Positions 2,651-47,420 of a DNA stretch of 64,000 nucleotides are shown here, piece by piece. The notes below the pieces were generated by a model. It saw nothing but the letters and a program-made list of their open reading frames with translations. It did no database searches and was not told where the DNA came from. Both the position numbers and the translations under genes were made by a program. The stretch is from Patescibacteria group bacterium (lineage in GTDB: Bacteria; Patescibacteriota; Patescibacteriia; Magasanikbacterales; GWA2-37-8): NCBI GenBank assembly GCA_004321885.1, contig SCQK01000014.1, positions 64,001-128,000 of the forward strand, written 5' to 3'. The stretch's first letter is position 1, and every line of letters begins with the position of its first letter.

Positions 2651-2656
2651 AAACCT

Positions 2657-28529: not shown

Positions 28530-28530
28530 T

Positions 28531-28601
28531 TCCGGGGTCGTCCAATGGCAAGACAGAGGCCTTTGAAGCCTCTTATCCAGGTCCGAATCCTGGCCCCGGA
28601 A
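28531..28601 (+). tRNA. tRNA-Gln(UUG)
   Basis: Acceptor UCCGGGG/CCCCGGA with the Gln-type U1-A72 pair. Anticodon stem GAGGC/GCCUC, loop CUUUGAA. T-arm CCAGG-UCCGAAU-CCUGG. Short 3-bp D-stem. 71 nt. Confidence 0.65.
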
Positions 28602-28658
28602 CACAGTTAATTGTGCAGTCGCTTTTAAGGCGGCTTTTTGGTATAATGCCAGAATCGT

Positions 28659-29111: not shown

Positions 29112-29128
29112 TTAACATCAAAAATAAT

Positions 29129-29968
29129 ATGGAGAAAACAAAAATCGCAATTTTTAAGGGCAAAAAAGTTCGCAAGATTCTATTTCAAAAAGAGTGGTGG
29201 TTTGTCATAAATGATGTCATTGAAATGTTGACGGATTCAGGTGATCCAGCCCAATACTTTAAGAGATTAAAAGAAAGAGACGAGGAGCTGGCAAAAATCG
29301 TAGACAAAGGGGGGGTACAATTTGTACCACCCCTCATGCTTGTTGTAGAAACTGCCGGTGGCAAGCAAAAAATGTATTGCTGGAATACTGAGGGTATTTT
29401 TCGTCTTGTACAATCAATCCCGTCGCCAAAAGCCGAGCCATTTAAGCGCTGGCTGGCCAGGGTGGGCTATGAGCGTGTGCAGGAAATTGAGAACCCGGAA
29501 TTGGCCACTAAACGAACGCGGATGTTATACAAGTTAAAAGGCTATCCTGATAGTTGGATAGAAAAACGAATGCGCGGCATTGAAGTGCGCGAAACCCTGA
29601 CTGACCAGTGGCAAAAACACGAAGTGAAACTGCAAAAAGAGTACGAAATACTAACCGCCGAAATCGCCCGTGCCACTTTCGGCCTTACTCCAAGCCAGCA
29701 TAAAAAAGTTAAAGGTTTAAAAAGAGAAAATCTGCGCGACCACATGAACGACTTGGAGTTGATTTTTTCCATGCTTGGCGAAGCCGCCACCACGGAAATC
29801 GTCCGCAACGAACATCCGCTTGGATTTGTGAAAAATAAAAAAGTTGCCAAACGCGGCGGCGGCGTGGCCGGTTTGGCCAGAAAGAAGATGGAAATAGAAA
29901 CCGGTAAAAAAGTAGTGAGCAAAGAAAATTATCTGCCGCTGATAAAAAGAAAAAAGCGGTTAAAATAA
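29129..29968 (+). CDS. Bro-N domain-containing protein (phage antirepressor-like)
   Basis: IAIFKGKKVRKILFQKEWWFVINDVIEMLTDSGDPAQYFKRL matches the BRO-N pattern. Confidence 0.6.
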   Translation: MEKTKIAIFKGKKVRKILFQKEWWFVINDVIEMLTDSGDPAQYFKRLKERDEELAKIVDKGGVQFVPPLMLVVETAGGKQKMYCWNTEGIFRLVQSIPSPKAEPFKRWLARVGYERVQEIENPELATKRTRMLYKLKGYPDSWIEKRMRGIEVRETLTDQWQKHEVKLQKEYEILTAEIARATFGLTPSQHKKVKGLKRENLRDHMNDLELIFSMLGEAATTEIVRNEHPLGFVKNKKVAKRGGGVAGLARKKMEIETGKKVVSKENYLPLIKRKKRLK

Positions 29969-29972
29969 TTTT

Positions 29973-31802
29973 TTACTCCCACTCAATAGTTCCGGGTGGT
30001 TTGTTGGTGAGGTCGTAGAAGATGAAGTCCACGGCGTTTAGAGCGTGGATTTTTTTGATGATTTTTTTCAGAGTGGGCGAGGGTATGACGCCAAACGAGA
30101 CGGTCATCGCTTCTTCTGATTCCACGGGTCGCAGGACAATTGATTCGCCGTGCTTGTGCCCAAACGGCACGAGCACCGTGGGCATTTGCCAGATTTTTTG
30201 GCATTGCTTGTCGGTCAAAATGGCGCTGTCGGCGATGTCATCTATTTTTCGCAAAAGGTCCAGCCGTTTTTTGGTAAGATACGCTTTTTTCAGCGTGGCT
30301 TTTGGCAATGATTTTTTGTCGCCGGAAACAAGCAGTAGAACGCGGTTGATGTCTTTGTGGGCGTTGGTGATTTTAGGAGAAAGGGATTGATAATACCCCC
30401 ACCCGGCCTCCCCCTTATAAAGGGGGAGGGGACCTGTGATAACGGCGGGGTGGGCGTAGGAGCGCTCGTCGCCTTGCACGCCCACGGATTTGATGGGGAG
30501 ACGCCAAATTGTTGGCTCCACAGCCCCGACTAAGTCGGGGACTATGGAGCCAGCGTCGTTTGATCCTTCCGAGCACAGACAGCGAATGGCCAGGCCCGGG
30601 CCCGGAAAGGGATGGCGGTTTATCAATTTTTGCGGCAGACCGAGCTTAAGGCCGATGGCGCGCACTTCGTCTTTGTACAAATCCTTAATCGGCTCTATGA
30701 TTTTTCCTTCGGCGATCATTTGTTTTATCCGCGGTACGCGATTGTGATGCGTTTTTATGACGTCGGCGTTTTTGGTGCCGCCCGATTCAATAGTGTCGGG
30801 ATAAATGGTGCCTTGGCCGACCAACCATTTGTCTCCGGTCAATTTTTTTCTACCAGACCCGCCTTTGGCGGGTTCGGCCATTACTTTGTCCACAATATCC
30901 AAAAACAAATCGCCGATGATTTTTCTTTTTTGTTCCGGATCAGACACGCCTTTGAGCGCGGATAAAAATTCTTTTTCGGCGTTATACACCCGCAAGTTGT
31001 CTCCCAGTCGCTTCAGAGCCGCTATGATTTTTTTTGTCTCATCCAACCGCATCAGGCCGCTGTCAATGTGCAAGCCGAAAACCCTTTTTTCGCCAAGCAC
31101 TTTTCGCAATAGGGCGAAACAAACCGTGGAATCAACGCCGCCGGAGACGAGCAAGAAAACATTTTTACCGCCCGCTTCCTTTTTTATATTTTTTTCAATT
31201 TGATCCAGCATTGTCTCTGTCGTCCAGTTTTTTTCCGCCCCGCAAATATTTAAAATAAAATTGGCCAGAATTTTTTTTCCTTCTTTCGTGTGATTTACTT
31301 CCGGATGAAACTGAAAGCCGAAGAACTTTTTTGATAAATTTTGCATGGCCGCCACCGAACGGTTGCCGGTTGAAGCGATTGGCGTAAAACCGAACGGCAG
31401 TTTGTCCACGTGATCGCCGTGGCTCATCCAGACAACGGTATTTTTACTTACGCCCGAAAAAATCGGCGAGGCGCTGACGGATAATTTCGCCAAACCGTAT
31501 TCACGCGCCTTGCCCGATTCAACGCGCCCGCCAAAAAAATCTGCCATCAACTGATGCCCGTAGCACAGACCCAAAATCGGCGCGCTGAGCGTAAAAATTT
31601 TTTTATCAAAAGGCAAACGCGCGTCGCGCACCAGCGAACGCGGACCGCCGGAAAGGATGATTCCACACGCGTTTTTCAATCGTTCGGCTTTGACGTTATT
31701 CGGGTAAATACGTGAAATAACGCCCAGTTCGCGCACGCGACGGGCGATGAGATGGGTGTACTGGGAACCGAAATCAAGGATGGCGATTTCACTTTTTGGC
31801 AT
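29973..31802 (-). CDS. guaA: GMP synthase (glutamine-hydrolysing) GuaA with repeat insertions and internal C-terminal duplication
   Basis: GATase MPKSEIAILDFGSQYT...GLCYGHQL. ATP-PPase SGGVDS. C-terminus KPPGTIEWE. ATG at 31800-31802; the 734-aa track ORF over-extends across the guaB start. Inserts at 30395..30425 and 30514..30551. Confidence 0.9.
   Translation of the reverse strand: MPKSEIAILDFGSQYTHLIARRVRELGVISRIYPNNVKAERLKNACGIILSGGPRSLVRDARLPFDKKIFTLSAPILGLCYGHQLMADFFGGRVESGKAREYGLAKLSVSASPIFSGVSKNTVVWMSHGDHVDKLPFGFTPIASTGNRSVAAMQNLSKKFFGFQFHPEVNHTKEGKKILANFILNICGAEKNWTTETMLDQIEKNIKKEAGGKNVFLLVSGGVDSTVCFALLRKVLGEKRVFGLHIDSGLMRLDETKKIIAALKRLGDNLRVYNAEKEFLSALKGVSDPEQKRKIIGDLFLDIVDKVMAEPAKGGSGRKKLTGDKWLVGQGTIYPDTIESGGTKNADVIKTHHNRVPRIKQMIAEGKIIEPIKDLYKDEVRAIGLKLGLPQKLINRHPFPGPGLAIRCLCSEGSNDAGSIVPDLVGAVEPTIWRLPIKSVGVQGDERSYAHPAVITGPLPLYKGEAGWGYYQSLSPKITNAHKDINRVLLLVSGDKKSLPKATLKKAYLTKKRLDLLRKIDDIADSAILTDKQCQKIWQMPTVLVPFGHKHGESIVLRPVESEEAMTVSFGVIPSPTLKKIIKKIHALNAVDFIFYDLTNKPPGTIEWE
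30514..30551. repeat. family-C palindromic repeat in-frame within guaA (encodes SIVPDLVGAVEP)
   Basis: GGCTCCACAGCCCCGACTAAGTCGGGGACTATGGAGCC is the reverse complement of the copy at 5619..5656. Confidence 0.7.
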
Positions 31803-31857
31803 ACTTGCAATAAAATCGGCTATACTATACCATACAACCAATTTACAGCCAATATTT

Positions 31858-33321
31858 ATGCGTGAAACACTTACATTTGATGATGTTTTGCTGGTGCCGC
31901 AGAAGTCCGACGTTCTGCCCAAAGACGCCCATCTGACCAGTTTTTTAACACACGAAATCAAATTGAATTTGCCGTTTTTGAGCGCGCCCATGGACACGGT
32001 CACCGAACACGGTATGGCTATTGCTTTGGCCCTCTCCGGCGGCCTGGGCATTATCCACAAAAATTTGTCTTTGGAACAGCAGGTAGCCGAGGTGCGTTGC
32101 GTAAAAAGATTTGAAAACGGTTTTATAGAAAATCCGGTTACGGTAAAACCGGATGACAAAATTTTGAAAGTTGACAAAATAAAAAGCGAGCTGGGTTTTA
32201 AGAAAGTGCCGGTCTGCGACGAAGGCGGCCGGCTGGTCGGCCTTATTTCCGACGTGGATTATTATATGCCCGACGACGCCGAGGCGCCGGTGCGGGAAAG
32301 AATGCGCCCGCTTGGCGAACTGAAAATCGCGGTGGGTAAAATTGAACTGGACGAAGCCAACAGATTATTGCGGATGTTTCGCCTCAAAACTTTGTGCGTG
32401 GTGGATGAGAGCGGCAAGTTGGCGAGCATTGTCACGCGCAAGGATTTGGAAAAAAATCAAACCTATCCATTGGCCTGCAAGAACAAGCATAAGCAATTGC
32501 GGGTGGGCGCGGCCATTGGCGCCGGCGAGTTTGCTTTGGCGCGGGCCGACGCCCTGGTGGCGGCCGGCGCCGACGCTCTGGTGATAGACACGGCCCACGG
32601 ACACTCCGAGGGCGTTTTGGAAACCCTGCGCCGGGTCAAGCAAAAATATCCTTATCAGCCGGTGCTCGCCGGCAATATCGCCACCGGCGCCGCGGCCAGG
32701 GATTTGATAGAAGCCGGCGCCGACGCTATAAAAGTTGGTATCGGGCCCGGTTCAATCTGTACCACGCGCGTTGTTTCTGGCGTGGGCATGCCCCAGCTCA
32801 CGGCCATTATGGACGTGGCCGAAACCGTCAGGGCCATGGGCAGCCAAACGCCGCTCATTGCCGACGGAGGCATTAAAAATTCCGGCGATATCGTGAAAGC
32901 CCTGGCCGCCGGCGCCAGCTCGGTGATGATGGGCAATATGTTCGCCGGCACCGACGAAGCCCCGGGCCGCGTGGAATTTTTGAACGGGCGCATGTATAAA
33001 GTCTATCGCGGCATGGGCAGTTTGGAAGCGATGGACAGGGGAAGTAAAGACCGCTATGGCCAATGCGATGTCAGCGAAAAAAATAAGCTCGTGCCCGAAG
33101 GCGTCAGCGGCCGCGTGCCGTACAAGGGCCACGTGGCGCGCATTATTTTTCAGCTGGCCGGCGGGGTAAAAAGCGGCATGGGCTACCTGGGGGCGCGCAC
33201 CATTCCAGCACTTCAGCAAAAAGCCGAATTTATAAAAATTTCTTCGTCAGGCGTGCGCGAAAATCATCCGCACGACCTGCTTTCGTTTGACGCGGCGCCC
33301 AACTACCGCGCCGATGAATAG
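31858..33321 (+). CDS. guaB: IMP dehydrogenase GuaB
   Basis: [18 protein letters not shown]-terminus. CBS pair. Catalytic loop [11 protein letters not shown]. Divergent from guaA with a 55-bp spacer. Confidence 0.9.
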
Positions 33322-34726: not shown

Positions 34727-35452
34727 GTGAAAATATTTATTCGCGACGACGCGGACCAAAGCGTGTATAACGAAATTTTTAAGCTGGGCGAATATCGCGC
34801 CGCGGACAAAGCCATAAAAAACGCGCGTGAACCCGTTATAGACGTCGGCGCGCACGCCGGCTTTTTTAGTTTGTATTGCCGCGCGCTCAATCCCCAGGTG
34901 AAAATTTTCGCCATTGAACCCGAGCCGGAAAATTTTAAGCAGTTACAAAAACACATCGCGGGCAACAATATTAAGGGCGTGGAGCCGGTGCCAGCCGCTT
35001 TGGCCGGCGAGACCGGGGAGAGGGAGTTGATAATATCCAAAGACAATCATAATCATCGGCTCCGATTACCCCCTCCTCGCCTCCCCCTTATAAAGGGGGA
35101 GGACAATTTCCCTCCCCTTGATAAGGGGAGGGCGAGGGAGGGGTACTGGGTCGCGGCTTTTTCCTTGGGTGATTTTTGCCGGCGTTATAAAATCAAAAAC
35201 GTCGCTTTGCTCAAAATGGACATAGAAGGAGGAGAGGAAGAAACGTTCAAAAGTGCGAGCGCGTCTGATTTGGCTATGGTAAAAAACGTAATTTTGGAGT
35301 ATCATGGTAATAACTTCGCGCCAATAGAACAAAAATTGCGCGAAAACGGTTTTGGAGTACAGAAATTTCCGTCCAAGTTTGATAATAAAATGGGTTTTTT
35401 GTTTGCACGCAATAAAAGGTATGTCTCACCAAGCATGGATAGTGGCGGTTGA
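34727..35452 (+). CDS. FkbM-family methyltransferase (alternative GTG start) carrying tandem in-frame palindromic insertions
   Basis: IDVGAHAGFFS and KMDIEGGE motifs. Insert 35069..35143 encodes PPPRLPLIKGEDNFPPLDKGRAREG. Confidence 0.65.
   Translation: MKIFIRDDADQSVYNEIFKLGEYRAADKAIKNAREPVIDVGAHAGFFSLYCRALNPQVKIFAIEPEPENFKQLQKHIAGNNIKGVEPVPAALAGETGERELIISKDNHNHRLRLPPPRLPLIKGEDNFPPLDKGRAREGYWVAAFSLGDFCRRYKIKNVALLKMDIEGGEEETFKSASASDLAMVKNVILEYHGNNFAPIEQKLRENGFGVQKFPSKFDNKMGFLFARNKRYVSPSMDSGG
35069..35143. repeat. two tandem family-A palindromic repeats in-frame within the FkbM MTase gene
   Basis: CCTCCCCCTTATAAAGGGGGAGG followed by CCCTCCCCTTGATAAGGGGAGGG. Confidence 0.7.
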
Positions 35453-36746
35453 CATGGGCTATGGCCACCAGCGCGCGGCCCACCCTTTGCGCCACTTGTC
35501 GCCCACGGGCAAGGTGATTACGGCCAACAACTACGCGGGCATTCCGGTCAAAGACCAGAAAATCTGGCAGGATTCCGAGACTTTTTACGGGCATGTTTCG
35601 CGTCTGTCCAATCTGCCGCTTATTGGCCATTGGTTATTCGGCCTGTACGATAAATTGCAAAGCATTGCCGAGTTTTATCCGCGCCGCGATTTGTCCAAAC
35701 CCAATTTTCAGCTCAAACAAATGTACCGGCTGATTGGCAGGGGCTGGGGCAAAGATTTGGTGAATTTTTTGAACACGCGGGATGTGCCGCTTATCACCAC
35801 TTTTTTCTTGGTGGCTTTTTTCGCTGAAGAACACGGCTTCAAAAACGATATTTACTGCGTGCTCTGCGACGCCGACATCAGCCGCGCCTGGGTTGGTTTC
35901 AATCCGCCCAAGAGCAGAATCAAATATCTGGCGCCCTGCCGGCGCGTAGTGGAGAGGCTGAAGCTTTACGGCGTGCCCGAGAAAAATATCTATCTCACAG
36001 GCTTTCCCTTGCCCGAAGAAAATCTGGGCGGCGCCCAGCTGCATTCTCTAAAAAGCGATTTGTCCGAGCGCATTATTAATTTGGATCCCCAAAATCGGTA
36101 TCGCCAAAAATATTTCCAGACCGTGAAGCATTTTTTGAAGGACGCGAACAAGGAAGAGGCGCACAGCCATCCGCTCACCCTCACTTTCGCCGTGGGCGGA
36201 GCCGGCGCGCAGAGAAATCTGGCCAAGGACATTTTGCGCAGCTTAAAGAAAAAATTATTGGATGAAGAAATCAATCTGAATCTGGTCGCCGGCAATCGCA
36301 ACGACGTGTATTTGTATTTCCGCGACCATATCGCCGAGACTGGTTTGGGCAAGTTGGCGGGCCGTAATCTGAATATAATTTTTGATGTCAATAAGGAAGA
36401 TTATTTTACCAAGTTTAACAGTTGTTTGCGCAGTACCGATATTTTGTGGACCAAGCCGAGCGAGCTGGTGTTTTACACGGCCCTGGGATTGCCCATTATT
36501 ATGGCGCCGTCTCTGGGGTCGCAGGAGGTTTTCAACCGCACCTGGCTAAAAACCATCGGCGGGGGCATTTCGCAAAACGAGCCGCGCTACACGCGCGAGT
36601 GGCTGATGGACTGGGTGGATTCGGGCTGGCTGGCCGAAGCGGCCATGGCCGGTTTTCTTGACGGCCGGCAGTTCGGGGTGTACAACATTATGGACGTGGT
36701 TTTTAACGGCGTGAGAGAGCCGGCCAAGAGCTATCAGTTGTTGTAG
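35421..36746 (+). CDS. GT28-family glycosyltransferase (MGDG synthase / UgtP-like)
   Basis: N-terminal VAVDMGYGHQRAAHPL matches the GxGHxxxAxAL motif of MGDG-synthase-type GT28. ATG at 35421 overlaps the upstream gene end. Confidence 0.6.
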   Translation: MSHQAWIVAVDMGYGHQRAAHPLRHLSPTGKVITANNYAGIPVKDQKIWQDSETFYGHVSRLSNLPLIGHWLFGLYDKLQSIAEFYPRRDLSKPNFQLKQMYRLIGRGWGKDLVNFLNTRDVPLITTFFLVAFFAEEHGFKNDIYCVLCDADISRAWVGFNPPKSRIKYLAPCRRVVERLKLYGVPEKNIYLTGFPLPEENLGGAQLHSLKSDLSERIINLDPQNRYRQKYFQTVKHFLKDANKEEAHSHPLTLTFAVGGAGAQRNLAKDILRSLKKKLLDEEINLNLVAGNRNDVYLYFRDHIAETGLGKLAGRNLNIIFDVNKEDYFTKFNSCLRSTDILWTKPSELVFYTALGLPIIMAPSLGSQEVFNRTWLKTIGGGISQNEPRYTREWLMDWVDSGWLAEAAMAGFLDGRQFGVYNIMDVVFNGVREPAKSYQLL

Positions 36747-36813: not shown

Positions 36814-38748
36814 TTGCTTATGCCCATAAGACTTTCGCCGGAAGTCAATATACCAGAGCCGAAAATGGAACAAAAGCCAGTCTCGGAATTATCGCGATTG
36901 CGCCATGAGTTGGATTTTGCGGACAAGATAAAAGGTTTTGAGGCCGGAGTGGAAAGTCCGAATGATGGGCGGATAATGGCCGATGTTTTGGAAAGGCGCG
37001 ATTGGGGGCATTTGTTCAGGGAAGCCAAGAAAGGACGAAGAATACTCACGTTCAAGACGCCAAGCGACGAGGTTTATAATTTAAAGAAAATGAATGACAA
37101 GGTTTTGGGCCCGACCAGGGTTGATGAAATCTTTATTTTTCGGCGTAAATTAATGGATGAAGCGGCAAAGAAAATCGGGGCGAAAGTCGTCATCAATCCG
37201 GTTGTCGCCGATGTCATGATTATAGATGAAGCTCGGAAGAATATAACCGAGGATGAATTAACAGAGATTGCGCGGGAAATTAAAGAGAAAATGACAGCCA
37301 AGATTTTGGCCCTGGCCGAGTCGGCGCAAGAGCCGGGCCGTCGCGAGGCGGCCGCGGCCTTTATAAAAGAATTTAAGAAAAGCGGGTATGAAGTCAGGTT
37401 TGGTGTGGCCGATATTGAAGGCGACGACGAAGCGGCTAAAATTTCGGCTGTCAGCCGGTCTTTGCAAGCGTGTAAAATGGCAGCCGAGGGCGAATTTGGA
37501 AGCGTGTACAATCCGGAAAAAATCCTGCAAACCTTAGAGAGGATTTCGGTTTTAACGGAAGAAATTGATAAAGCGGGCAATGAAATTACCGATGCAAATG
37601 GCTTTTCGTATTACATTATGATACAAGGAAGCATAAACATAGATGTTTTGCGCATGGCGCGCAGTTATTCCTTGAAAGTCAAAAAAGGCGACACAGACGG
37701 GGCAAAACAGCTAAGCCGTATTTTGGAGTATCTCAGCTTGATAAATAATTTGGATAATGTCAAACCCTTTACGATGAAAGAGGTTGACGCGGGCGAGACC
37801 AAAAAACGAATAGCCCGCCATGAAGCGTTGGCAGAGAAAGTTAGAAGCGGCGATCTATCGGATGACGAGAGAGCCGAGGCGGCCAAAAGCATTGAGAGAG
37901 ATGAAAAGGACGGCCGCTTCACCGCCAGGAGCATTTTTCACCAAAGGGCTTCCGCGATGAGCCATTGCCATTACATATTGATAGACGTTCGCGATATCGG
38001 AGTTGAGCAGTTAAAAAAATACGAGAGAAGGACTTTGGCTATCGCCCAGTTGAAAGACGACGCCACCAAAGTTGAGGCGTATGAGCAGGCGTCATTGGAG
38101 GCGGACGATGACACTACGGAAAAATTGCGTCGTTTTAGGGATGTCATCGTGGAGACAGTCAGGGAAAAATTTTCTTTGTCCGAGGCGGAAGAAATTTTGG
38201 GTTTTGTGGGCGGGGACGAGCTTAACTTGGCGATTGACGGCGACAAGTTTGGCCAGGAAAAAGTGGATGAATTGATTTTTGCGATAAAAGCCAGGCTGGC
38301 GGCGGGCGGAGTGGAAGCGAGAATCCAGACAGTTGTTTCACAGGCCGAGAAAGACATTGACAGCGCGAGCGGCCAGGAAGAAAAATTACAGGCTCATTTT
38401 GAATCGCTTAAAATGGCCGAAGAAGGCGCGGATATCGCCAAAGCCGTGGAGGATTTGGAGCGGAAATTGAATTACTATTTAATTAGGGGAGAAGAATATC
38501 CGGAGGAAGGAGTGGCGCCGGAGCGGCTGAAGGACTTTTTGGGCGACTTGAATTGGCTTTTTGAATTTCAAAATAAGAAGTTTAAGTGCGTTGATTTTAA
38601 GGTTGAAGCGCTCGGCGATGAACGGGTCAATATTGTGGGCCGCAAATCGTCTTTGCAATATTCCAAAAAGGAAATTAAGGCAAAATTGGAGAGTTTTATA
38701 ACTCCGAACGATGTGGCAAAGATGCCAAAGGAGCTGAAGATGGCGTAA
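36814..38748 (+). CDS. large uncharacterised protein with C-terminal GGDEF-like palm-domain motifs
   Basis: HYILIDVRDIG...FRDVIVETVRE...ILGFVGGDELNLAI parallels llDiDhFK...GDevL...RyGGDEFavll of nucleotidyl cyclases. Otherwise novel. 644 aa. Confidence 0.55.
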   Translation: MLMPIRLSPEVNIPEPKMEQKPVSELSRLRHELDFADKIKGFEAGVESPNDGRIMADVLERRDWGHLFREAKKGRRILTFKTPSDEVYNLKKMNDKVLGPTRVDEIFIFRRKLMDEAAKKIGAKVVINPVVADVMIIDEARKNITEDELTEIAREIKEKMTAKILALAESAQEPGRREAAAAFIKEFKKSGYEVRFGVADIEGDDEAAKISAVSRSLQACKMAAEGEFGSVYNPEKILQTLERISVLTEEIDKAGNEITDANGFSYYIMIQGSINIDVLRMARSYSLKVKKGDTDGAKQLSRILEYLSLINNLDNVKPFTMKEVDAGETKKRIARHEALAEKVRSGDLSDDERAEAAKSIERDEKDGRFTARSIFHQRASAMSHCHYILIDVRDIGVEQLKKYERRTLAIAQLKDDATKVEAYEQASLEADDDTTEKLRRFRDVIVETVREKFSLSEAEEILGFVGGDELNLAIDGDKFGQEKVDELIFAIKARLAAGGVEARIQTVVSQAEKDIDSASGQEEKLQAHFESLKMAEEGADIAKAVEDLERKLNYYLIRGEEYPEEGVAPERLKDFLGDLNWLFEFQNKKFKCVDFKVEALGDERVNIVGRKSSLQYSKKEIKAKLESFITPNDVAKMPKELKMA

Positions 38749-38870
38749 AATACTTAATACAAAAATAGCCTTGAATTTAGGGCTATTTTTTTGCGTTTAG
38801 TTTATCCACAGGCCAGCCCTTGATTTTTTTTCGGCTTTATGCTATGTTGGTTTGTCCCTATAATGGGGAA

Positions 38871-39260
38871 GAGAGGAGACCCTACGGATGTGTGCTCGGC
38901 GATGGTTTTTTAGAATCGCCGGGCTGAAAGTCCGGCGGGTTGCATGGGACCCGCGTTCGCGGGAACTATGCTTGGAGTTTTGTTGCAGTGAGCTTGGAAA
39001 CGGAGTTTCCAGCCCACTGCTTAGCCGCAAGGTCTGGCACGGGATTTTTGGGGATTTGCGCAAGCTTATCCTCAAGCCAGACCACATAGACACGTATACG
39101 TTGAAGCCAGTGTCTATGAGGCCGTTGGTGCCGGGCAGTTTGGCGCCTGATCCCGGGGGCGAAATGCGAGTGAGACTCGTTTTCGCCGTTGGCCCGGGCG
39201 GGGCGAGCACTGACAGGGCCGGTGCGGAAAACGCGGCCGCGTTAATAGAATGGGAGTGGC
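38871..39260 (+). ncRNA. candidate RNase P RNA (rnpB-like) / structured ncRNA
   Basis: TATAAT at 38859..38864 precedes a ~390-nt GC-rich stretch with no convincing ORF. P4-like motifs GAAAGUCCGG (38926..38935) and GACAGGGCCGG (39212..39222) are ~290 nt apart, as in bacterial RNase P RNA. A P3-like hairpin GGCGAUGGUUUUUUAGAAUCGCC is present. Confidence 0.35.
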
Positions 39261-39466
39261 CGCGTTGGTGGCGCAAGATGCTCTTCTTTTTTAAGGGAGA
39301 AGAGCAAGCCATGAGCTTGACGCCCGTGGATGACGTTGCCGCGGACACAATCGCGGCAAACAAATAAAATTACGCCCGACAGAGCATCAGAGCATCGCCG
39401 GGCGAGCACATCAAGGAGAAAGGAGGAAAACCCGGCAGTTCGTCTGACCGGGTTTCGTATTTTTAC

Positions 39467-39523: not shown

Positions 39524-40678
39524 TCATTTTTTCTCCTGCCCCAGCCAGTAGGCCGCCAGCAAAGTGGCGATGGGCACGGATAGGGCCACGCCGATACTGC
39601 CCACCAGGGTGCGCACGATTTCCGTGGCAATGGTTTCGTTGTTTATGGCTTGGGCCCAAGAGAGCGGCGGGTCGCGTTGAATATGAAACAGCAGTAAAAC
39701 AGGCAAAGACGCTCCGGCGTAGGTTAAAAACAAAGTATTGACCAAGGCGCCCAAATGCGCGTTGCCGATTTTATAGGCTGATGTAAAAACTTGCGCGGGC
39801 GACAGCGACGGATTCGCGTTTTTTATTTCCCGCACTGCTTCAATTTGCCCCACGATTACATCATCAAGCACGCCGATGGCGCCGATAAGTATGCCGGATA
39901 GTAACAGGCCCTGAAAATTTATGGCGCCCTTGTTCGCGCCGATTAAAAACATGGCCTCTTCCTGCCCCAGGCCGGAAAGCCGCGCCAGTTTCGTGAAAAG
40001 CCAAGACAGAAAAAACGTGGCCGCCAGCGAGAGCAAAACACTGACAATGGCCAGGTGGGATTTTTTATTCCAGCCTTCGTTTAAGTAAATAATGATGGCC
40101 AGCACCGCGAAGGCGCCAAACAAGGCGATGGGCAGGGGACTGACGCCTTTCATGAGCAAGGGCACAATTATTTTGATAATTAAAAAAAAGCTGATGGCCA
40201 AGCCGACCAGGGCCAGCAGGCCTTTTTTCTTGCCCACCAAAAGAACCACGAGCGCGAAAATGAGAGTCAGCCACAACAGGGGAGTCTGGCGCACGTAATC
40301 TACTGCGTAAAAATTTTCCGTGCCATCGCTGCGCTTGACATAATTTACCAAAACCTTGTCGTTGACTTTATAAACTCCGGACGAGAGCACATCCAAATCG
40401 GAAATGCCGCTCACATTAAATTCTTTGTCTTCCCATTTTCCCTCCAGCCCGCGCAGAAGCAGATTTTGTTGGACGGCTTGGCGGCCGTCCGGGCGCGTCG
40501 TTTCTTTTTGTTCCAGTATTTTTATTACTTTGGCTTTGAAAACCGCTTCTGTTTCATTGGCCGCATACGTACCGGCTGGCAGAAACAAAATAAAAAACAG
40601 CGTCAAAATAAAAATAATGAATCGTTTACGTCCCTCCCTTAGGGGGAGGATAGAAGGGGTATGCATGATGTTATACAA
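39524..40678 (-). CDS. YibE/F family membrane protein
   Basis: N-terminal periplasmic domain plus a ~7-TM C-terminal region. The N-terminal codons are repeat-derived (PLREGRK from CCTCCCTAAGGGGGAGG). Confidence 0.7.
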   Translation of the reverse strand: MYNIMHTPSILPLREGRKRFIIFILTLFFILFLPAGTYAANETEAVFKAKVIKILEQKETTRPDGRQAVQQNLLLRGLEGKWEDKEFNVSGISDLDVLSSGVYKVNDKVLVNYVKRSDGTENFYAVDYVRQTPLLWLTLIFALVVLLVGKKKGLLALVGLAISFFLIIKIIVPLLMKGVSPLPIALFGAFAVLAIIIYLNEGWNKKSHLAIVSVLLSLAATFFLSWLFTKLARLSGLGQEEAMFLIGANKGAINFQGLLLSGILIGAIGVLDDVIVGQIEAVREIKNANPSLSPAQVFTSAYKIGNAHLGALVNTLFLTYAGASLPVLLLFHIQRDPPLSWAQAINNETIATEIVRTLVGSIGVALSVPIATLLAAYWLGQEKK

Positions 40679-40719: not shown

Positions 40720-41358
40720 CTAAAACAATATCGCCGCATGCGGCATTCTCGCTTTCAAAGTCCTAATCGCGCTCTTGGGAATGGGATTGCCGATAAGGTT
40801 CAGCTCGGTCAGATTTTTTAATCCGGCGATGCCGGCGGGAACGGACGTTAATTTGTTGTAAGAAAAATCCAAAATTTGCAGTGATTTAATTTCTAAAATT
40901 TTTGCCGGGATTGAGCGGTAGGTATTTTTGGCCAGAGATAAATGTGTGAGTTTTTTCAGGTTGGCGATTTCATCGGGCATGGTGTCAATTTTGTTTTCGC
41001 CGTAGTTTAGGGTTTCCAGGTTGCCGAGCTGGCCGATTTCGGCCGGGATGCCGGTCATATTATTATTGCTCGCGTCCAAGAATTTCAAATTTTGCAAATG
41101 GCGGATTTCGGCCGGCAAGGCGCCGGTGAGATTGTTGCCGGACAAGTCCAAAATTTCCAGCGCGGTTTTGCTAAAAATATCCATGGGTACTTTGGATAAG
41201 CCGCGCTCGCTAAGGTCAAGCTGGGTCTGGCTTTGCGGTATGCGCGGCGCGAAAGTTTTCAGCGCCCCATCCCGCGATTTGGCAAAGTATAAAATACCGG
41301 CCGCGGCCACAACGAGCAAAGCAATAATCGCTCCAAGCGTTACTTTTTTTTGAGGCAT
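40720..41358 (-). CDS. leucine-rich repeat (LRR) protein, membrane-anchored
   Basis: Repeated LxxLxLxxNxL units (LEILDLSGNNLTG..., LKFLDASNNNMTG...). ATG at 41356-41358. The upstream extension is repeat-encoded (HQNFWCG). Confidence 0.7.
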   Translation of the reverse strand: MPQKKVTLGAIIALLVVAAAGILYFAKSRDGALKTFAPRIPQSQTQLDLSERGLSKVPMDIFSKTALEILDLSGNNLTGALPAEIRHLQNLKFLDASNNNMTGIPAEIGQLGNLETLNYGENKIDTMPDEIANLKKLTHLSLAKNTYRSIPAKILEIKSLQILDFSYNKLTSVPAGIAGLKNLTELNLIGNPIPKSAIRTLKARMPHAAILF

Positions 41359-41370
41359 ATATTTGTGGTT

Positions 41371-41440
41371 CCTCTCCCCTTTACAAGGGGGAGGCTTGTC
41401 ACCACACCAAAAATTTTGGTGTGGTGACAGAGAGGGGGTA
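41371..41440. repeat. composite family-A plus family-B palindromic repeats
   Basis: CCTCTCCCCTTTACAAGGGGGAGG followed by CTTGTCACCACACCAAAAATTTTGGTGTGGTGACAGAG. Confidence 0.7.
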
Positions 41441-41446
41441 ATCCTC

Positions 41447-41695
41447 TCACATTTCAATATCTTTTCTCATTTCCGCGAATTGCGCTTTGGTTATTTCGCC
41501 TTTGACGTATCTCTCTTTGAGAATGGCGAGCGCGTCGGCGCGCGTTGGGCTAGTTCTGGGCGGTTCGTGGTCGCGGCGCTCGCGCGAACCCTGCACCAGT
41601 GAAACAATACCCCATATCAGCGCCATCCAAAAAAGCAGCATAAACACCGGGCCGATAATTCCGTATCCTCCCCAGTTGGTAAATGGGAACATCAT
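41447..41695 (-). CDS. SHOCT domain-containing small membrane protein
   Basis: TM helix plus C-terminal ILKERYVKGEITKAQFAEMRKDI (SHOCT signature). Confidence 0.6.
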   Translation of the reverse strand: MMFPFTNWGGYGIIGPVFMLLFWMALIWGIVSLVQGSRERRDHEPPRTSPTRADALAILKERYVKGEITKAQFAEMRKDIEM

Positions 41696-41736: not shown

Positions 41737-41861
41737 GTTAATTAGCTCATTCTATCTTAACAGATTATAATTTTTTGTCCATAATTGACATTTTCGCTAT
41801 TTTTTTCTATAATAGTTGTCATTCCGGACTTGATCCGGAATCCAGCTCCTTTGAAAATAAA

Positions 41862-41905
41862 TTCCGGGGTAGCGCTCCGCCAGCCGGCGGAGGTAGCGCA
41901 GTTGG
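41862..41905 (+). pseudogene. truncated tRNA-Asn-like 5' fragment with 17-nt hairpin insertion
   Basis: UCCGGGGUAGCGC equals tRNA-Asn positions 1-13. Then the hairpin UCCGCCAGCCGGCGGAG. Then GUAGCGCAG, which matches tRNA-Asn 17-25, before the sequence diverges into the GIY-YIG ORF. Confidence 0.5.
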
Positions 41906-42156
41906 CTGTGTATACTGTTTACGCTATTTACAATCAAAAAAACGATAAAATTTATATTGGACAAACAAAAGACATGGCCGAACGATTAAGGTTGCATAAT
42001 GAAAAAATCCTTCTTGGTTATACTTATAGATTTGATGGAAATTGGAAATTAATTTATAGTGTACAGATCGAGAATAGACAAAAAGCTTTACAAAGAGAGA
42101 GACAACTTAAAAGTTTTAGAGGCAGAGAATTTATAAAACAATTTATTCCGGGGTAG
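41902..42156 (+). CDS. small GIY-YIG nuclease family protein (COG2827/YhbQ-like), TTG/GTG start
   Basis: VYTVYAIYNQKNDKIYIGQTKDMAERLRLHNE (GIY-YIG..R..HN) and a downstream Glu (RERQLK). GGAGGT Shine-Dalgarno sits 7 nt before the TTG at 41902. The stop TAG lies inside the first 10 nt of tRNA-Asn. Confidence 0.65.
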   Translation: MAVYTVYAIYNQKNDKIYIGQTKDMAERLRLHNEKILLGYTYRFDGNWKLIYSVQIENRQKALQRERQLKSFRGREFIKQFIPG

Positions 42157-42218
42157 CGCAGCGGTAGCGCAGAGGACTGTTAATCCTTTGGTCGTGGGTT
42201 CGAATCCCACCCCCGGAG
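42147..42218 (+). tRNA. tRNA-Asn(GUU)
   Basis: Acceptor UCCGGGG/CCCCGGA, D-arm GCGC-AGCGGUA-GCGC, anticodon stem GAGGA/UCCUU with loop CUGUUAA, T-arm GUGGG-UUCGAAU-CCCAC, discriminator G. Confidence 0.85.
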
Positions 42219-42220
42219 CA

Positions 42221-42350
42221 AAAACAAAAATACTGGTAATATCCAGTATTTTTGCTTTTGCTCGGAATACACGAAAAAATACGAACGGATTTGGGCGAAT
42301 TTTAGGGCGCGGGCGAAATTCCCTCCCCACACCCCTTCCTTTCGCCCGCG
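42221..42350. repeat. left ~130-bp inverted repeat (includes tRNA terminator hairpin AAAAATACTGGTAATATCCAGTATTTTT)
   Basis: About 88% identical to the reverse complement of 47421..47550. Confidence 0.7.
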
Positions 42351-42528
42351 AAGCGAAACGGGGGCTCTGGTGGACAAAAACTGCCAAAGAACCCGTAAAA
42401 AATGTCGGCCGAACTTTATGTTGGCCAAAAGCAAACTTTTCTCTTTGATATTGAATTACGATTGTTAAAGTGATATAATCAAGTCAATGAGCGTCCCATT
42501 CTTGCTATCTTATGTATACTATCATACT

Positions 42529-42735
42529 ATGGAAGAAAAGAAAACAATCGGCGAAAAAATAAAAAAATGGAGAGCGAAGAAAGATTTGACACAAGACGCC
42601 TTGGCAAAAAAGGCGGATATTCCATATAGCACGATTGCTAAAATTGAATCAGATGTTATTACGAGGCCAACAATACAGACAGTGCAAAAGCTGGCCGTTG
42701 GTTTGGGTATAACACTTGATGAATTATTAAAATAG
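42529..42735 (+). CDS. XRE-family HTH transcriptional regulator (candidate RM controller C-protein)
   Basis: KIKKWRAKKDLTQDALAKKADIPYSTIAKIE is an HTH_XRE. 68 aa. Directly upstream of the MTase. Confidence 0.7.
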   Translation: MEEKKTIGEKIKKWRAKKDLTQDALAKKADIPYSTIAKIESDVITRPTIQTVQKLAVGLGITLDELLK

Positions 42736-42736
42736 T

Positions 42737-43618
42737 ATGGTTAAAGGTCACAAAGTGAAAAATGAAAAAATCGATAAAAAAATAGCTTTTGGTTGGTATG
42801 GCGGTAAGTTTAGTCATCTTGACTGGCTTTTGCCGCTGTTGCCGGAAACCGATCATTTTTGTGAGCCGTTTGGTGGCTCTGCTGCCGTTATCATAAACAG
42901 AAATCCTTCTTTAATCGAAACATATAATGATTTAGATGGCGAGGTAGTTAATTTCTTCAGAGTATTAAGGGAACATCCTAACGATCTTATAAGACAAATT
43001 GGGCTTACTCCATTTTCGAGGGAAGAATTCAAATATGCTATTGAACACGAAGATGATAAAAATCTTTCAGATATTGAGAGGGCTAGGTCTTTTTTTATCC
43101 GCGCAAGGCAGGTTAGGACTGGACTTGCTCAAAAAGCTACTTCTGGTAGATGGGCAAATTGTAAATTAACTTCCAGAGCCGGAATGTCAGGTGCGGTCTC
43201 GAGGTGGTTGGGAAGTGTTGACGGGCTAACAGAGATTGCGGAAAGGCTTTTACGAATACAAATTGAAAATGCTCCTGCAATTGAAGTTGTAAGGCGATAT
43301 GATAGCCCACAGACCTTATTTTACTGTGATCCTCCGTATACACATGATTCTCGAGGTGATATAAATGCCTATAAATTTGAAATGGACAGGGATGCGCATG
43401 TCGAACTGGCCGAAACACTAAAACAGGTTAAGGGGTTAGTCGCTATATCGGGTTACGACTCTCCCCTAATGAACGAGCTGTATCAAGGATGGAAAAAAAT
43501 CGCTGGGCCAGTAAAAAATGCAAATTCTATACAACAACCTAGACAAGAAATTTTATGGGTTAATTATAATATTAATGATAAATCTTTATGGAAAAAGCAG
43601 CAAAGATCCTTGATATAA
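42737..43618 (+). CDS. DNA adenine methyltransferase, Dam/D12-class (N6-adenine)
   Basis: Motif I FCEPFGGSAAV. Motif IV FYCDPPYT (DPPY). Confidence 0.85.
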   Translation: MVKGHKVKNEKIDKKIAFGWYGGKFSHLDWLLPLLPETDHFCEPFGGSAAVIINRNPSLIETYNDLDGEVVNFFRVLREHPNDLIRQIGLTPFSREEFKYAIEHEDDKNLSDIERARSFFIRARQVRTGLAQKATSGRWANCKLTSRAGMSGAVSRWLGSVDGLTEIAERLLRIQIENAPAIEVVRRYDSPQTLFYCDPPYTHDSRGDINAYKFEMDRDAHVELAETLKQVKGLVAISGYDSPLMNELYQGWKKIAGPVKNANSIQQPRQEILWVNYNINDKSLWKKQQRSLI

Positions 43619-44709
43619 TTTTGAAAAAAACTAATGGGCATCTAGAAAAACCTTTTATAAAAAATAGGGAGATTTTGCGGAAAATAGAATTTATTTCTCA
43701 TAATATTCAAAATCGAGCCGGCGTCCGCCTTATTATGTCTTGCTTACTGGCGAAACTTGACGATCCAAAAGTTGATGTAAGAAAACCTTATACGGAGATT
43801 GGCAGTCGTGATAGTTTTTCGGGCAGAACATATGACGAGGCCTATGTCGGCAGTTTTATCACTAAACATCACTTGCCGTGTAATCCAACAACAGCGTTTT
43901 TGACGCCAGCTCTACGTAATAGAAATATTGTACTTACGCCAAAAGTAAATTTAGTCGGCAGGCCACCAGAAATTTATCAATACGTTCTCGACCTCCTAGA
44001 ATTAGTATTTAAAGGATTTCTTGCCCCAGCCATTCTGCTTGCGGAAATAATGCGACAACTTGTTCTTTTACGAGATGAAAATCAAAAACGTATAAAATCT
44101 TTGTTAAAGAATCTCGGGAAAAATGGTAGTGTGCCTCTTTCGGGTGAAGACATAATAAAACTTATTGAGCAACATTTAAATTGCAAAGGAGCCAGCAGAC
44201 TTCCCGTACTTATCGTGGCCGCTGCTTACAACACTATTGGAAATTTCATCCAAGAAAAAGTATTACCTATCTTTTCTCACAATTCTGCAGATAAACAAAC
44301 TGGTGCGCTCGGCGATATACAAATTACGTTAATTAATGACGAGAATGTAGTAACTAGTTATGAGATGAAGATGAAGAAGGTCACAAAGGACGACATTGAT
44401 ATCGCTCTGCAAAAAATTTCGGGAGTTAAGTACAAAATAGATAATTATATTTTTATAACGACGGATATAATAGATGATTCGGTAAAAGAATATGCGAAAT
44501 CACTTTATGAGCAAACCGGCGGAATAGAGATAGTTGTCTTAGATTGTATTAGTTTTCTTAGGCATTTTATTCATTTATTCCACCGCTTCAGATTGCCATA
44601 TCTTGAAGAGTATCAAAAGTTGGTGATGGGTGAAGCAGACAGCGCGGTCAGTCAGCCCCTTAAAGAGGCATTTCTTGCTCTTCGACAGGCAACAGAAAGC
44701 GCGAATTAA
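43588..44709 (+). CDS. putative type II restriction endonuclease (PD-(D/E)xK-like)
   Basis: Overlaps the MTase 3' end. Candidate GD...(17 aa)...EMK motif (ALGDIQITLINDENVVTSYEMKMK). Confidence 0.45.
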   Translation: MEKAAKILDIILKKTNGHLEKPFIKNREILRKIEFISHNIQNRAGVRLIMSCLLAKLDDPKVDVRKPYTEIGSRDSFSGRTYDEAYVGSFITKHHLPCNPTTAFLTPALRNRNIVLTPKVNLVGRPPEIYQYVLDLLELVFKGFLAPAILLAEIMRQLVLLRDENQKRIKSLLKNLGKNGSVPLSGEDIIKLIEQHLNCKGASRLPVLIVAAAYNTIGNFIQEKVLPIFSHNSADKQTGALGDIQITLINDENVVTSYEMKMKKVTKDDIDIALQKISGVKYKIDNYIFITTDIIDDSVKEYAKSLYEQTGGIEIVVLDCISFLRHFIHLFHRFRLPYLEEYQKLVMGEADSAVSQPLKEAFLALRQATESAN

Positions 44710-44802
44710 TGCAATAAAATAGTAAAAATGCAACCTTTTTCGGTGTGCGACGTTATATTATTGGGAGCTAAATATGACGATTATTAAAAAGTGTTTATCT
44801 TT

Positions 44803-45447
44803 ATGGATATTGAAGCCGAAAAAGAACAAATCGTGAAGGCCCAAAGTAATATCAAGGAGTTTGCGCCTTTATTTGATGAATATTACCCCCAAATACTTAA
44901 ATATTTAATAGGGCGTATCCGCAGTGTGGAAATTGCCCAGGATATTGCATCTGTTACATTCTTGAAAGCCTTAGAGAATATAAAAAAATTTAACTGTCGG
45001 GGGATTAGCATATCATCGTGGCTGTACCGAATAGCTACGAACGAGGTCACTACATATTTTAGAAAAAATAAAACCCTTTCACTCGATGAGATAAGGGCAT
45101 GTGAAAATTTTGATCCGCCCGCTATCGGCAACCCGTACATTGAAATTGTCCAGGCGCAGGAAAAAATTGAAAATGATAAAAAATTTTTGAATCTACAAAA
45201 TGAGATTCTAAAATTACATATAAATTATCAAGAAGTCATAATGTTGCGATATTTCGAGAAAAAACAAATAAATGAGATAGCAGAAATTTTAAATAAAAGC
45301 GAGGGGACGATTAAATCTCTCCTCCATCGAGGTTTGAAAAAATTAAAAAAAAATTTTCAACTACACAACAGTGACGCCAGAACGCAACCTTTTCAAAATA
45401 AAAACGTTCTAAATATAGAACAGGTACTAGTACCCATAAAATTATGA
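44803..45447 (+). CDS. ECF-type RNA polymerase sigma-70 family factor
   Basis: Region 2 (WLYRIATNEVTTYFRK) and region 4 HTH (EVIMLRYFEKKQINEIAEILNKSEGTIKSLLHRGLKKLK). Confidence 0.75.
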   Translation: MDIEAEKEQIVKAQSNIKEFAPLFDEYYPQILKYLIGRIRSVEIAQDIASVTFLKALENIKKFNCRGISISSWLYRIATNEVTTYFRKNKTLSLDEIRACENFDPPAIGNPYIEIVQAQEKIENDKKFLNLQNEILKLHINYQEVIMLRYFEKKQINEIAEILNKSEGTIKSLLHRGLKKLKKNFQLHNSDARTQPFQNKNVLNIEQVLVPIKL

Positions 45448-45686
45448 ATGACCTACAGGAGTTAGAAAAAATGTTAGAGGAGATCGAGGTTCCGTCTGTG
45501 GACTTAAATATAAATAAGGAGTTGTTGAAGAGTTACCTATTTAGAAATGAGCGGGTTGAATTTGAGAGCAGCAAACAAGATAACTCCATATTTGCCCCGC
45601 AGTTTGAATTTTTACCTTGTCCGTCATTTACGTATGATTATTTAATTAATGATTTTAATTCAACTACATATGTCCTTAGTTATTAA
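45444..45686 (+). CDS. small hypothetical protein, translationally coupled to ECF sigma (candidate anti-sigma/partner)
   Basis: ATGA start/stop overlap with the sigma gene. 80 aa. Confidence 0.4.
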   Translation: MNDLQELEKMLEEIEVPSVDLNINKELLKSYLFRNERVEFESSKQDNSIFAPQFEFLPCPSFTYDYLINDFNSTTYVLSY

Positions 45687-46632: not shown

Positions 46633-46656
46633 TAAATTATTTTTAACTAATAGTTT

Positions 46657-47301: not shown

Positions 47302-47420
47302 AAAGCTGCGTTTCCGCCAAAGCCGAGCGAAGCTCGGTATCCCGCCGCAACAAGTAGCGTCGGGATGAAAAACTGGAAATCGTCATTCGTCGGAGATCCC
47401 TCCGCCCAAGGCGGGCAGGC

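Follow-up and report, generated by a model that had tools for sequence, protein, structure and literature searches.

A two-palm protein family of Magasanikbacteria with a GGDEF-like centre, predicted to be a nucleotidyl-transferase or cyclase of the palm superfamily

The window, i.e., the whole 64,000-nucleotide stretch of contig SCQK01000014.1 from a Patescibacteria group bacterium that was analysed here, contains at 36814..38748 on the plus strand an open reading frame (ORF) whose product had been described, in an earlier sequence-only reading, as an orphan protein with a cryptic GGDEF-like palm domain. The protein is in fact a member of a new, unannotated family within a known superfamily, that of the palm enzymes, and is predicted to be an enzyme of the GGDEF/Cas10 type. 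It is probably an active nucleotidyl-transferase or cyclase. The reading that is favored here, and favored only tentatively, is that of a soluble enzyme of about 627 residues, from the palm superfamily that comprises GGDEF enzymes, Cas10 and class III cyclases, in which the two palms of one chain would together synthesize a nucleotide product.

The family and the GGDEF-like centre of palm 2

The protein turned out to have many relatives, which disposes of its description as an orphan. When 1.84 billion cluster representatives were searched exhaustively with phmmer, 107 clusters were obtained at E ≤ 1e-3, 90 of them at E ≤ 1e-10 and 50 at E ≤ 1e-30, and the relatives are mostly 600-800 amino acids long, about 25-35% identical to the query and aligned to its residues ~10-560. 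The conservation counts given below refer to a 70-member alignment of this family. Residues are numbered in the 627-residue frame that starts with the ATG at 36865, and 17 has to be added to obtain the 644-residue numbering of the sequence-only reading.

AlphaFold2 gave a predicted local distance difference test score (pLDDT) of 41 without an alignment, and a pLDDT of 91.9 with a predicted template-modelling score of 0.90 when the 70-sequence family alignment was supplied. The resulting model consists of five parts, namely an N-terminal hairpin, a β-α-α-β-β-α-β-α unit, a helical middle, a second β-α-α-β-β-α-β-α unit and a β-rich tail. This predominantly helical structure, together with a composition of 11.6% E, 10.2% A and 9.9% K, bears out the Ala/Glu-rich, helical character noticed by the sequence-only reading. 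The parts of the protein and their motifs are the following:

36865..37026, plus strand: N-terminal helical hairpin, residues 1-54 (helices 8-26 and 32-53), from the model
37027..37509, plus strand: palm domain 1, degenerate, residues 55-215, from the model, column statistics and collinear Foldseek matches
37078..37134, plus strand: palm 1 motif, NLKKMNDKVLGPTRVDEIF, consensus S-I-K74-x-L-N77-D78-x-x-F-G82-x-x-x-T-D87-x-I-I
37510..37914, plus strand: middle domain, mostly helical, residues 216-350, from the alignment and the model
37660-37662, 37744-37746 and 37753-37755, plus strand: codons of the invariant middle-domain residues R266, N294 and D297
37915..38499, plus strand: palm domain 2, GGDEF-like, residues 351-545
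37984..37986, plus strand: codon of Asp374, candidate first metal-binding aspartate, at the end of β1 within D374-x-x-D377-x-G379
38095..38142, plus strand: start of helix α2, LEADDDTTEKLRRFRD, family motif A-G-D415-x-x-T418-x-x-x-R422-x-x-R425
38209..38220, plus strand: codons of the GGDE signature, G449-G450-D451-E452, in the β2-β3 hairpin, 70/70 at all four positions
38389..38454, plus strand: QAHFESLKMAEEGADIAKAVED, in helix α4, with H511 (68/70), K526 (69/70) and E529 (67/70)
38500..38745, plus strand: C-terminal tail, residues 546-627, with one helix, five short strands and terminal helices

Residues 351-545 of the model adopt the GGDEF-type palm fold β1-α1-α2-β2-β3-α3-β4-α4, so that the palm which had been suspected from raw sequence is recovered by structure prediction. 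Its elements are α0 (355-363), β1 (367-375), α1 (378-394), an extra helix (399-411), α2 (415-436), the β2/β3 pair (446-458, with strands at 446-448 and 452-458), α3 (464-480), β4 (489-497) and a long α4 (504-544). D374 is the last residue but one of the strand 367-375 and is found in all 70 sequences, accompanied by D377 in 60 and G379 in 69; the family reads D-V-L-D377-L-G379 at this place. Both candidate metal-binding acidic sites that had been pointed out are thus invariant, and they lie where they lie in diguanylate cyclases, i.e., at the end of β1 and in the β2-β3 hairpin. In the model, D374 and GGDE are predicted to be arranged as in the two-metal centre that diguanylate cyclases and Cas10 have in common, the geometry of which has been established (PMC12657218, PMC11734703). 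The residue after GGDE is L in 28, V in 11, I in 11, F in 8 and A in 7 of the relatives, which leaves agreement with GG[DE][DE]F at four of the five positions. From the composition of the protein only 0.018 occurrences of GGDE would be expected by chance, and the pattern GG[DE]E[FLIVM] occurs once in the six frames of the 64-kb window, at 38209.

The three strings that the sequence-only reading had quoted (HYILIDVRDIG, FRDVIVETVRE and ILGFVGGDELNLAIDG) are all present in the protein. Its statement that they reproduce the motif spacing of diguanylate cyclases did not hold, as D374 and GGDE are 64-89 residues apart in the family (mode 66, and 75 in the window protein) versus 41 in DgcZ of E. coli; the longer spacing is due to the extra helix at 399-411. 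FRDVIVETVRE, the middle string, lies within helix α2 and is not a conserved element. The conserved motif stands just upstream of it (ADDDTTEKLRRFR here), with D415 in 68, T418 in 69 and R425 in 63 of the 70 sequences. A greedy hhalign alignment, not a structural superposition, pairs D415 with the Asp of the GHxxGD motif of GGDEF enzymes. In helix α4, H511, K526 and E529 are, from their conservation, candidate phosphate-binding or general-base residues, and R485, an Ala in the window protein, is also near-invariant in palm 2. When the palm 2 sub-alignment was compared by hhalign with a profile of five E. coli GGDEF domains (DgcZ, DgcF, CdgI, DgcJ and DgcP), only a local match of 21 columns was obtained (P 2.6e-4, probability 42%), which sets VGGDEltlA on RlGGeEFai, i.e., GGDE on GGEEF. 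Taken together, the structural inference that had been drawn from raw sequence is supported as correct.

A degenerate palm 1 and the proposed composite site

The remainder of the chain, which had been said to match nothing recognisable, can now be described further, in that residues ~55-215 form a second, degenerate palm domain. In the model its elements follow the order β1-α1-α2-β2-β3-α3-(α)-β4-α4 over residues 59-205, with strands at 59-64, 106-110, 115-120 and 178-183. Palm 1 has no catalytic acids; Pro66 follows β1, and the hairpin reads Q-D-Y-K in the family and N-P-V-V here. Its own motif is well kept, with K74 in 68, N77 in 69, D78 in 56, G82 in 63 and D87 in 59 of the 70 sequences, and resembles the base-binding motif of GGDEF domains, F-K-x-x-N-D-x-x-G-H-x-x-G-D. 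The motif is also recognisable by eye in three distant members (P0105, P0108 and P0096), and the two-palm module is thus an evolutionary unit. Global hhalign comparisons, of each palm with the E. coli GGDEF domains and of palm 1 with palm 2, were not significant, and an internal duplication is therefore not demonstrable by sequence.

The conserved unit comprises about 500 residues, i.e., the degenerate palm 1, the helical middle domain and the catalytic-type palm 2, followed by the variable tail. Ranked by conservation, palm 2 comes before the middle domain, the N-terminal hairpin and palm 1, and the tail is far behind (mean identity to the target 0.15, versus 0.31 for palm 2). Ten columns are invariant: G180, R266, N294, D297, F358, D374, G449, G450, D451 and E452. 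Three of them thus fall into the middle domain, where N258, Y289, K300, P301 and K267 (Ser in the window protein) are near-invariant; a Cys-rich zinc motif was looked for there, and not one of the 70 members has a pair of CxxC motifs. At the N-terminus, relatives have about 90 extra, variable residues that the window protein lacks. A whole-chain Foldseek search gave tandem-palm proteins as its best matches, with Cmr2 (3w2w_A) at E 2.8e-4 over 652 columns, and further full-length matches to Cas10 (9lq5_B and 8s9t_C), adenylyl cyclase 9 and soluble adenylyl cyclase.

In the mechanism proposed, palm 2 would bind a nucleoside triphosphate with Mg2+ and catalyse the attack of a 3'-OH on the α-phosphate, while palm 1, devoid of the catalytic acids but equipped with the K-x-x-N-D...G...D motif, would hold the second nucleotide. 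The single chain would in this way provide a composite, pseudo-dimeric active site, similar to Palm1/Palm2 of Cas10 and to C1/C2 of the tandem class III cyclases. In Cas10 the active site is situated at the interface of Palm1 and Palm2; the GGDD-Mg2+ centre receives the triphosphate of one ATP, and Palm1 residues hold the second ATP (PMC11734703). As product of the proposed site one would expect a dinucleotide or oligonucleotide, either linear or cyclic, which probably contains G. Of the Asn and Asp that read guanine, palm 2 has only D415 (68/70), and palm 1 has both N77 (69/70) and D87 (59/70), the equivalence being one of motif and greedy alignment. This pair in palm 1 suggests guanine because the superfamily uses Asn to recognise guanine and Ser to recognise adenine (PMC12657218). 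The invariant R266, N294 and D297 of the middle domain may help to bind the substrate or the product.

Alternatively, the protein could be a divergent but classical diguanylate cyclase, in which two palm 2 domains pair as a homodimer with one GTP each and make cyclic di-GMP (c-di-GMP) or another cyclic dinucleotide, palm 1 being regulatory. A model for such a regulatory palm exists, since degenerate GGDEF domains in composite GGDEF-EAL proteins sense GTP or c-di-GMP. This is the main rival, and we consider it possible but rather doubtful. The low structural similarity scores to Cas10 and soluble adenylyl cyclase (given below) leave full room for it. Palm 2 lacks the Asn of F-K-x-x-N-D, there is no RxxD inhibitory site (I-site) upstream of GGDE (positions 440-448 are variable and have no conserved R or D), and no PilZ, EAL or HD-GYP partner was found in the window. 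The near-invariance of the palm 1 pocket across phyla, moreover, fits a substrate site at least equally well.

The palm scaffold could also serve another chemistry, either GTP hydrolysis and ring opening in the manner of GTP cyclohydrolase III, or a template-independent transfer to RNA, DNA or protein in the manner of Thg1 or a polymerase, which is an unlikely reading. A free signalling nucleotide would then not be made. GTP cyclohydrolase III (MJ0145, 2qv6) is a single-domain archaeal hydrolase of riboflavin/F420 biosynthesis, to which the protein is only 8% identical in the aligned region, and the target lacks a biosynthetic context.

A number of results speak against a two-palm synthase. 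Sequence profiles give no link between the family and GGDEF domains, Cas10 or cyclases: the protein had no meaningful family match in Pfam, NCBIfam, PADLOC or PHROGs (hemK_rel_arch, at 17 bits with a cut-off of 87, and one PHROG, at E 0.014, were set aside as chance-level matches), a Pfam scan of the 70 relatives found no family at E ≤ 0.01, and the family profile matched no PDB sequence at E ≤ 10. The Foldseek E-values behind the assignment of palm 1 are marginal (1e-4 to 1e-2), and the local hhalign match of its motif to FKxINDxxGHxxGDxvL of the E. coli GGDEF domains is weak (P 0.014), though it falls at the right place in the fold. Palm 2 has Leu or Gln at the position of the F-K-x-x-N-D Asn. 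Template-modelling scores (TM-scores) to Cas10 and to the tandem cyclases reach only 0.17-0.28, and the domain order is therefore common to these proteins and the target, the packing is not. Beside the target, the 12 related loci described below show no conserved receptor, degrading enzyme or partner gene, and EAL, HD-GYP, PilZ, CARF and SAVED domains occur in none of the approximately 50 window ORFs that were scanned. Finally, of the 52 columns with a conservation of 80% or more, the window protein deviates from the consensus in 10, which places it at about rank 63 of the 70 members, and the copy may therefore be functionally drifting. The residues concerned are A54, R58, F90, V109, M252, S267, A354, D414, A485 and S514, with D58R, K267S, R485A and G414D among the substitutions.

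These ten departures would also be in keeping with a catalytically dead scaffold or a nucleotide receptor that merely keeps the palm fold, as would the clear degeneracy of palm 1 and the fact that many GGDEF-fold domains are degenerate receptors. Such a protein is nevertheless very improbable. The Asp and GGDE are kept in 70 of 70 sequences at an overall identity of about 25-30%, and D377, G379, D415, T418, H511, K526 and E529 are conserved as well; this invariance is the pattern of purifying selection on an active site and weakens the case for a dead protein. In the window protein itself, the presumed active-centre residues (D374, GGDE, D377, G379, D415, T418, H511, K526 and E529) are all intact.

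Distribution, neighbourhood and fused forms

When one genome per GTDB species was scanned with a pattern built from the 12 closest sequences, 12 loci (numbered with the prefix L) were recovered, nearly all in metagenome-assembled genomes of Magasanikbacteria or Patescibacteria. The locus labels were eight Magasanikbacteria/Magasanikiibacteriota, one Parcubacteria group, one Patescibacteria group, one 'bacterium' and two 'uncultured Gammaproteobacteria'; the last label looks mis-assigned in the case of L003, the homologue of which is 77% identical to one from Magasanikiibacteriota. The sole named cluster member is a 'hypothetical protein' of Candidatus Magasanikbacteria, and the window, too, comes from an organism of this kind. 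On the sequences available, the family is previously unannotated and occurs mainly in Magasanikbacteria, which belong to the candidate phyla radiation (CPR), and no description of it was found in the literature searched. A word-index homology search returned only the self-match, with the single protein as with the 70-sequence alignment, probably because Ala/Glu/Lys-rich words swamp the candidate list. No relative was found in a scan of viral contigs, and the viral BFVD fold library gave no match at E ≤ 1e-3.

The ORF had been correctly placed at 36814..38748. The following features define the gene:

36814..38748, plus strand: ORF as flagged, 644 codons from a TTG start, stop included in the coordinates
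36865..38748, plus strand: likeliest coding sequence, from ATG (MEQKPV...), 627 amino acids plus the stop codon
36758..36778, plus strand: perfect 9-bp hairpin, CCCTCTCCT-ATT-AGGAGAGGG, read directly from the sequence, between the upstream gene (end 36746) and the target
38761..38790, plus strand: terminator-like hairpin of 13 pairs followed by a T run, 13 nt past the stop codon

The ATG at 36865 appears likelier as the start than the TTG at 36814, as its 627-residue product (P0001) is identical to a protein on an independent 4.4-kb Logan contig from run SRR8426592. Hairpins stand on both sides of the gene, which suggests that it would be a transcription unit of its own. Neither the window protein nor the 70 aligned relatives have a signal peptide, a membrane helix or a long hydrophobic segment.

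Examination of the neighbourhood in relatives, which the sequence-only reading had proposed, revealed synteny inside sub-clades but no partner gene common to the whole family. In the closest sub-clade (window, L002, L003 and L004) a DUF6938-like gene lies directly upstream of the target homologue; the gene before it codes for an FkbM methyltransferase in the window, and L002/L006 have a related ORF there. A 107-residue ORF stands between the DUF6938-like gene and the homologue in L002-L004 and is absent from the window. The second sub-clade has as neighbours a U32 peptidase, GreA and an HI0933-like flavoprotein, the third an Ig-domain protein, QueH, TsaE and an O-antigen-ligase-like protein. 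Wherever conserved neighbours were sampled in the 12 loci, they proved to be housekeeping genes or genes without a Pfam match. An inference of function from an operon was rejected, since no partner is conserved across these loci and the sub-clades have different housekeeping neighbours. The synteny kept inside each sub-clade argues for vertical chromosomal inheritance and against a mobile island. A CRISPR/cas context was likewise rejected, there being no repeat array in the window and no cas domain in the approximately 50 window ORFs. The defence role that had been entertained found no support in a PADLOC match, a viral-contig relative or a defence-island context. As the gene is stand-alone, chromosomal and vertically inherited, the product of the presumed two-palm synthase most likely serves lineage-specific signalling.

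In some lineages the module is part of larger proteins. P0105 (locus L015, 329-3178; 949 residues; E 3.4e-4 to the query) begins with an extracellular contractile injection system (eCIS) core domain (PF13699, formerly DUF4157, E 5.6e-32), which is followed by a hydrophobic segment and then by the complete two-palm module with all its motifs. P0090 (locus L018, 7-16617) is a protein of 5,536 residues with the module at 293-808 and with GNAT and protein-kinase domains, and its gene adjoins a Fic gene and a second giant ORF (DUF4214). In P0108 (Omnitrophica, 1,366 residues) and P0096 (2,047 residues) the module is found inside larger proteins in housekeeping surroundings. The fusions show that the module can act as an effector domain in some lineages, which need not hold for the window protein.

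These forms raise the question of whether the protein acts as an effector or toxin on another cell, i.e., on the host of the episymbiont or on a competitor, a matter of role that is compatible with any of the chemistries above. An N-terminal DUF4157 combined with a C-terminal toxin, the order seen in P0105, is the typical architecture of eCIS-associated toxins (PMC8213781), and the giant P0090 joins the module with GNAT and kinase domains beside Fic and a further giant ORF. The divergence of the target gene points the same way, its product being 33% identical to the homologues in L002/L004, versus 69-82% for the ABC-transporter, FtsX and DUF6938-like genes that flank it; between L002 and L004 the homologues are 47.5% identical, versus 79-85% for the neighbours, and in the pair L006-L008 64%, versus 65-96%. 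Still, an effector role is improbable for the window protein. In the sub-clade of L009, L011 and L012 the rate of divergence of the homologue is about that of QueH and TsaE, no higher than that of its neighbours. The fusions amount to two of the 107 members, both of them distant. Neither the window protein nor the 70 relatives have DUF4157, a signal peptide or a membrane helix, and no adjacent injection or secretion genes and no conserved immunity-like neighbour were found. A bolder combination, to which little credence is given, is that of a CRISPR-independent enzyme of Cas10-like architecture that makes a novel oligonucleotide at a composite site and works, in ultra-small episymbiotic bacteria, as a fast-evolving effector on the host, delivered elsewhere as an eCIS toxin (P0105) or within a giant protein (P0090); if this were true, the family would represent a nucleotide-signal 'weapon' instead of a housekeeping messenger.

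Several other features of the window deserve mention. The FkbM-family methyltransferase gene (34727-35452, plus strand) is followed by the gene for the DUF6938-like protein of about 430 residues (about 35454-36746, plus strand), which is 70-74% identical in L002, L003, L004 and L006, far more conserved than the adjoining target, and has only a weak glycosyltransferase-like match in NCBIfam. On the other side, between the terminator of the target and a YibE/F gene (39524-40678, minus strand), the GC-rich region 38850-39445 folds far better than shuffled controls. Its plus strand has a minimum free energy of -276.1 kcal/mol, versus -221.1 +/- 6.7 kcal/mol for the shuffles (z -8.2, 0/100 shuffles), its minus strand one of -238.5 (z -7.7), and ~38887-38905 and ~39395-39415 form a terminal stem of about 19 bp. 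A search of Rfam gave no match there at gathering score or E ≤ 1, and the overlapping ORFs (159 residues on the plus and 173 on the minus strand) have no family matches and no homologues in the 12 related loci. The region is a candidate for a large structured RNA of no known class, or for an orphan ORF, and is not conserved beside the target homologues. RNase P RNA, suspected from a downstream string (GAAAGTCCGG), was rejected, as there was no Rfam match at E ≤ 1 and the string lies inside a simple local hairpin.

At 40720-41457 (minus strand) a leucine-rich-repeat (LRR) protein of 245 residues is encoded, the best NCBIfam similarity of which is to the LRR regions of the type III effectors XopAC/AvrAC, XopL and XopAE; such a protein is unusual for a bacterium with a reduced genome, and a function in host interaction is possible. 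A low-GC island (35-41% versus about 50%) extends over 42147-48200, beginning at tRNA-Asn (42147-42219), just ahead of which lies a gene for a GIY-YIG protein (41785-42156). It contains genes for a D12-class N6-adenine DNA methyltransferase (42737-43618), a SacI-like restriction endonuclease (43588-44709), an extracytoplasmic function (ECF)-type sigma factor, a proteasome-subunit-like protein and an N-acetylmuramoyl-L-alanine amidase, and is probably a horizontally acquired restriction-modification island. A second low-GC block, of 2 kb (43% over 28001-30000) and just after tRNA-Gln (28531-28602), holds the gene for a 279-residue protein (29129-29968, plus strand) with a BRO-N domain (PF02498), a domain that is usually associated with phages or viruses.

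The guaA ORF as listed (29973-32177, minus strand; 734 residues from TTG) overlaps guaB (31747-33321, plus strand) by about 430 nt; the GMP-synthase profile begins at residue ~131, so that guaA truly starts further inside the listed ORF and the overlap merely results from the ORF having been extended too far. In the C-terminal part of guaA the match to the GMP-synthase domain falls into two pieces (to residue 618, and 661-733), which suggests an insertion. A protein of 190 residues (22635-23207, plus strand) matches the Translin family (PF01997, E 8e-17), best known from eukaryotes. At 4362-7805 (plus strand) a protein of 1,147 residues with a lamin-tail domain and Pro/Thr-rich tandem repeats (5497-5935; periods of 12, 18 and 21 nt) is encoded, probably a surface protein, and its gene adjoins that of a type II/IV secretion ATPase (2570-3688). 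The remaining content of the window is ordinary for a chromosome and includes DnaG, RpoD, MurG, guaA/guaB, HtrA, a type IV pilus ATPase and seven tRNAs.

Relation to known palm enzymes and significance

The family agrees with the GGDEF cyclases (PF00990; PleD 1w25, DgcZ 4h54/3tvk, SadC 4wxo) in fold and signature but not in sequence profile. It differs from them in that the fifth signature residue is L, V or I more often than F, that the Asp and GGDE are set about 25-35 residues further apart by an inserted helix, that palm 2 has neither the guanine-binding Asn nor the RxxD I-site, and that each chain carries two palms with a conserved middle domain of 135 residues between them. The sensor domains of GGDEF cyclases (REC, PAS, GAF or membrane) are lacking in the target, as is an EAL, HD-GYP or PilZ context.

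With Cas10 (Csm1/Cmr2) the protein shares two palms in one chain (59-205 and 367-544), the second with the hairpin, and full-length Foldseek matches that are collinear. In contrast to Cas10, the hairpin is GGDE and not GGDD, an HD domain (no Pfam match) and a zinc finger are missing, and neither Csm/Cmr genes nor a CRISPR array were found in the window or in the related loci sampled; the TM-scores are only 0.17-0.21, and the domain fold is nearer to GGDEF than to Cas10. The collinear layout of palm 1, middle domain, palm 2 and tail is also similar to that of tandem class III cyclases (soluble adenylyl cyclase ADCY10, and C1-C2 of the membrane adenylyl cyclases), but the target gave no profile match to class III nucleotidyl cyclases (PF00211), and these are not its closest structural relatives.

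The mCpol protein of the Panoptes system (OptS) is a single, oligomerising domain of about 120 residues that is nearly without the GGDEF motif and is accompanied by a membrane effector in a defence operon, whereas the target is a two-palm chain of 627 residues with an intact GGDE, no conserved partner gene and no PADLOC match. As for the eCIS-associated toxins, the DUF4157/eCIS core and the corresponding operon are absent for the window protein and the 70 relatives, and only the distant P0105 has the domain.

Palm enzymes of the GGDEF, Cas10, mCpol and class III cyclase types make most of the known bacterial nucleotide messengers, and new branches of these enzymes have repeatedly given new molecules, such as 2',3'-c-di-AMP from mCpol. 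The present family of about 100 clusters, hitherto unannotated, combines a GGDEF-type centre with a Cas10-like two-palm layout outside any CRISPR context, and is found chiefly in CPR bacteria, about whose signalling and interactions with hosts almost nothing is known. Should the product be ordinary c-di-GMP, the family would widen the sequence space in which diguanylate cyclases are to be sought. If the enzyme is active, it would be a concrete, clonable candidate for a new nucleotide product, and a handle on signalling or host manipulation by symbionts with reduced genomes.

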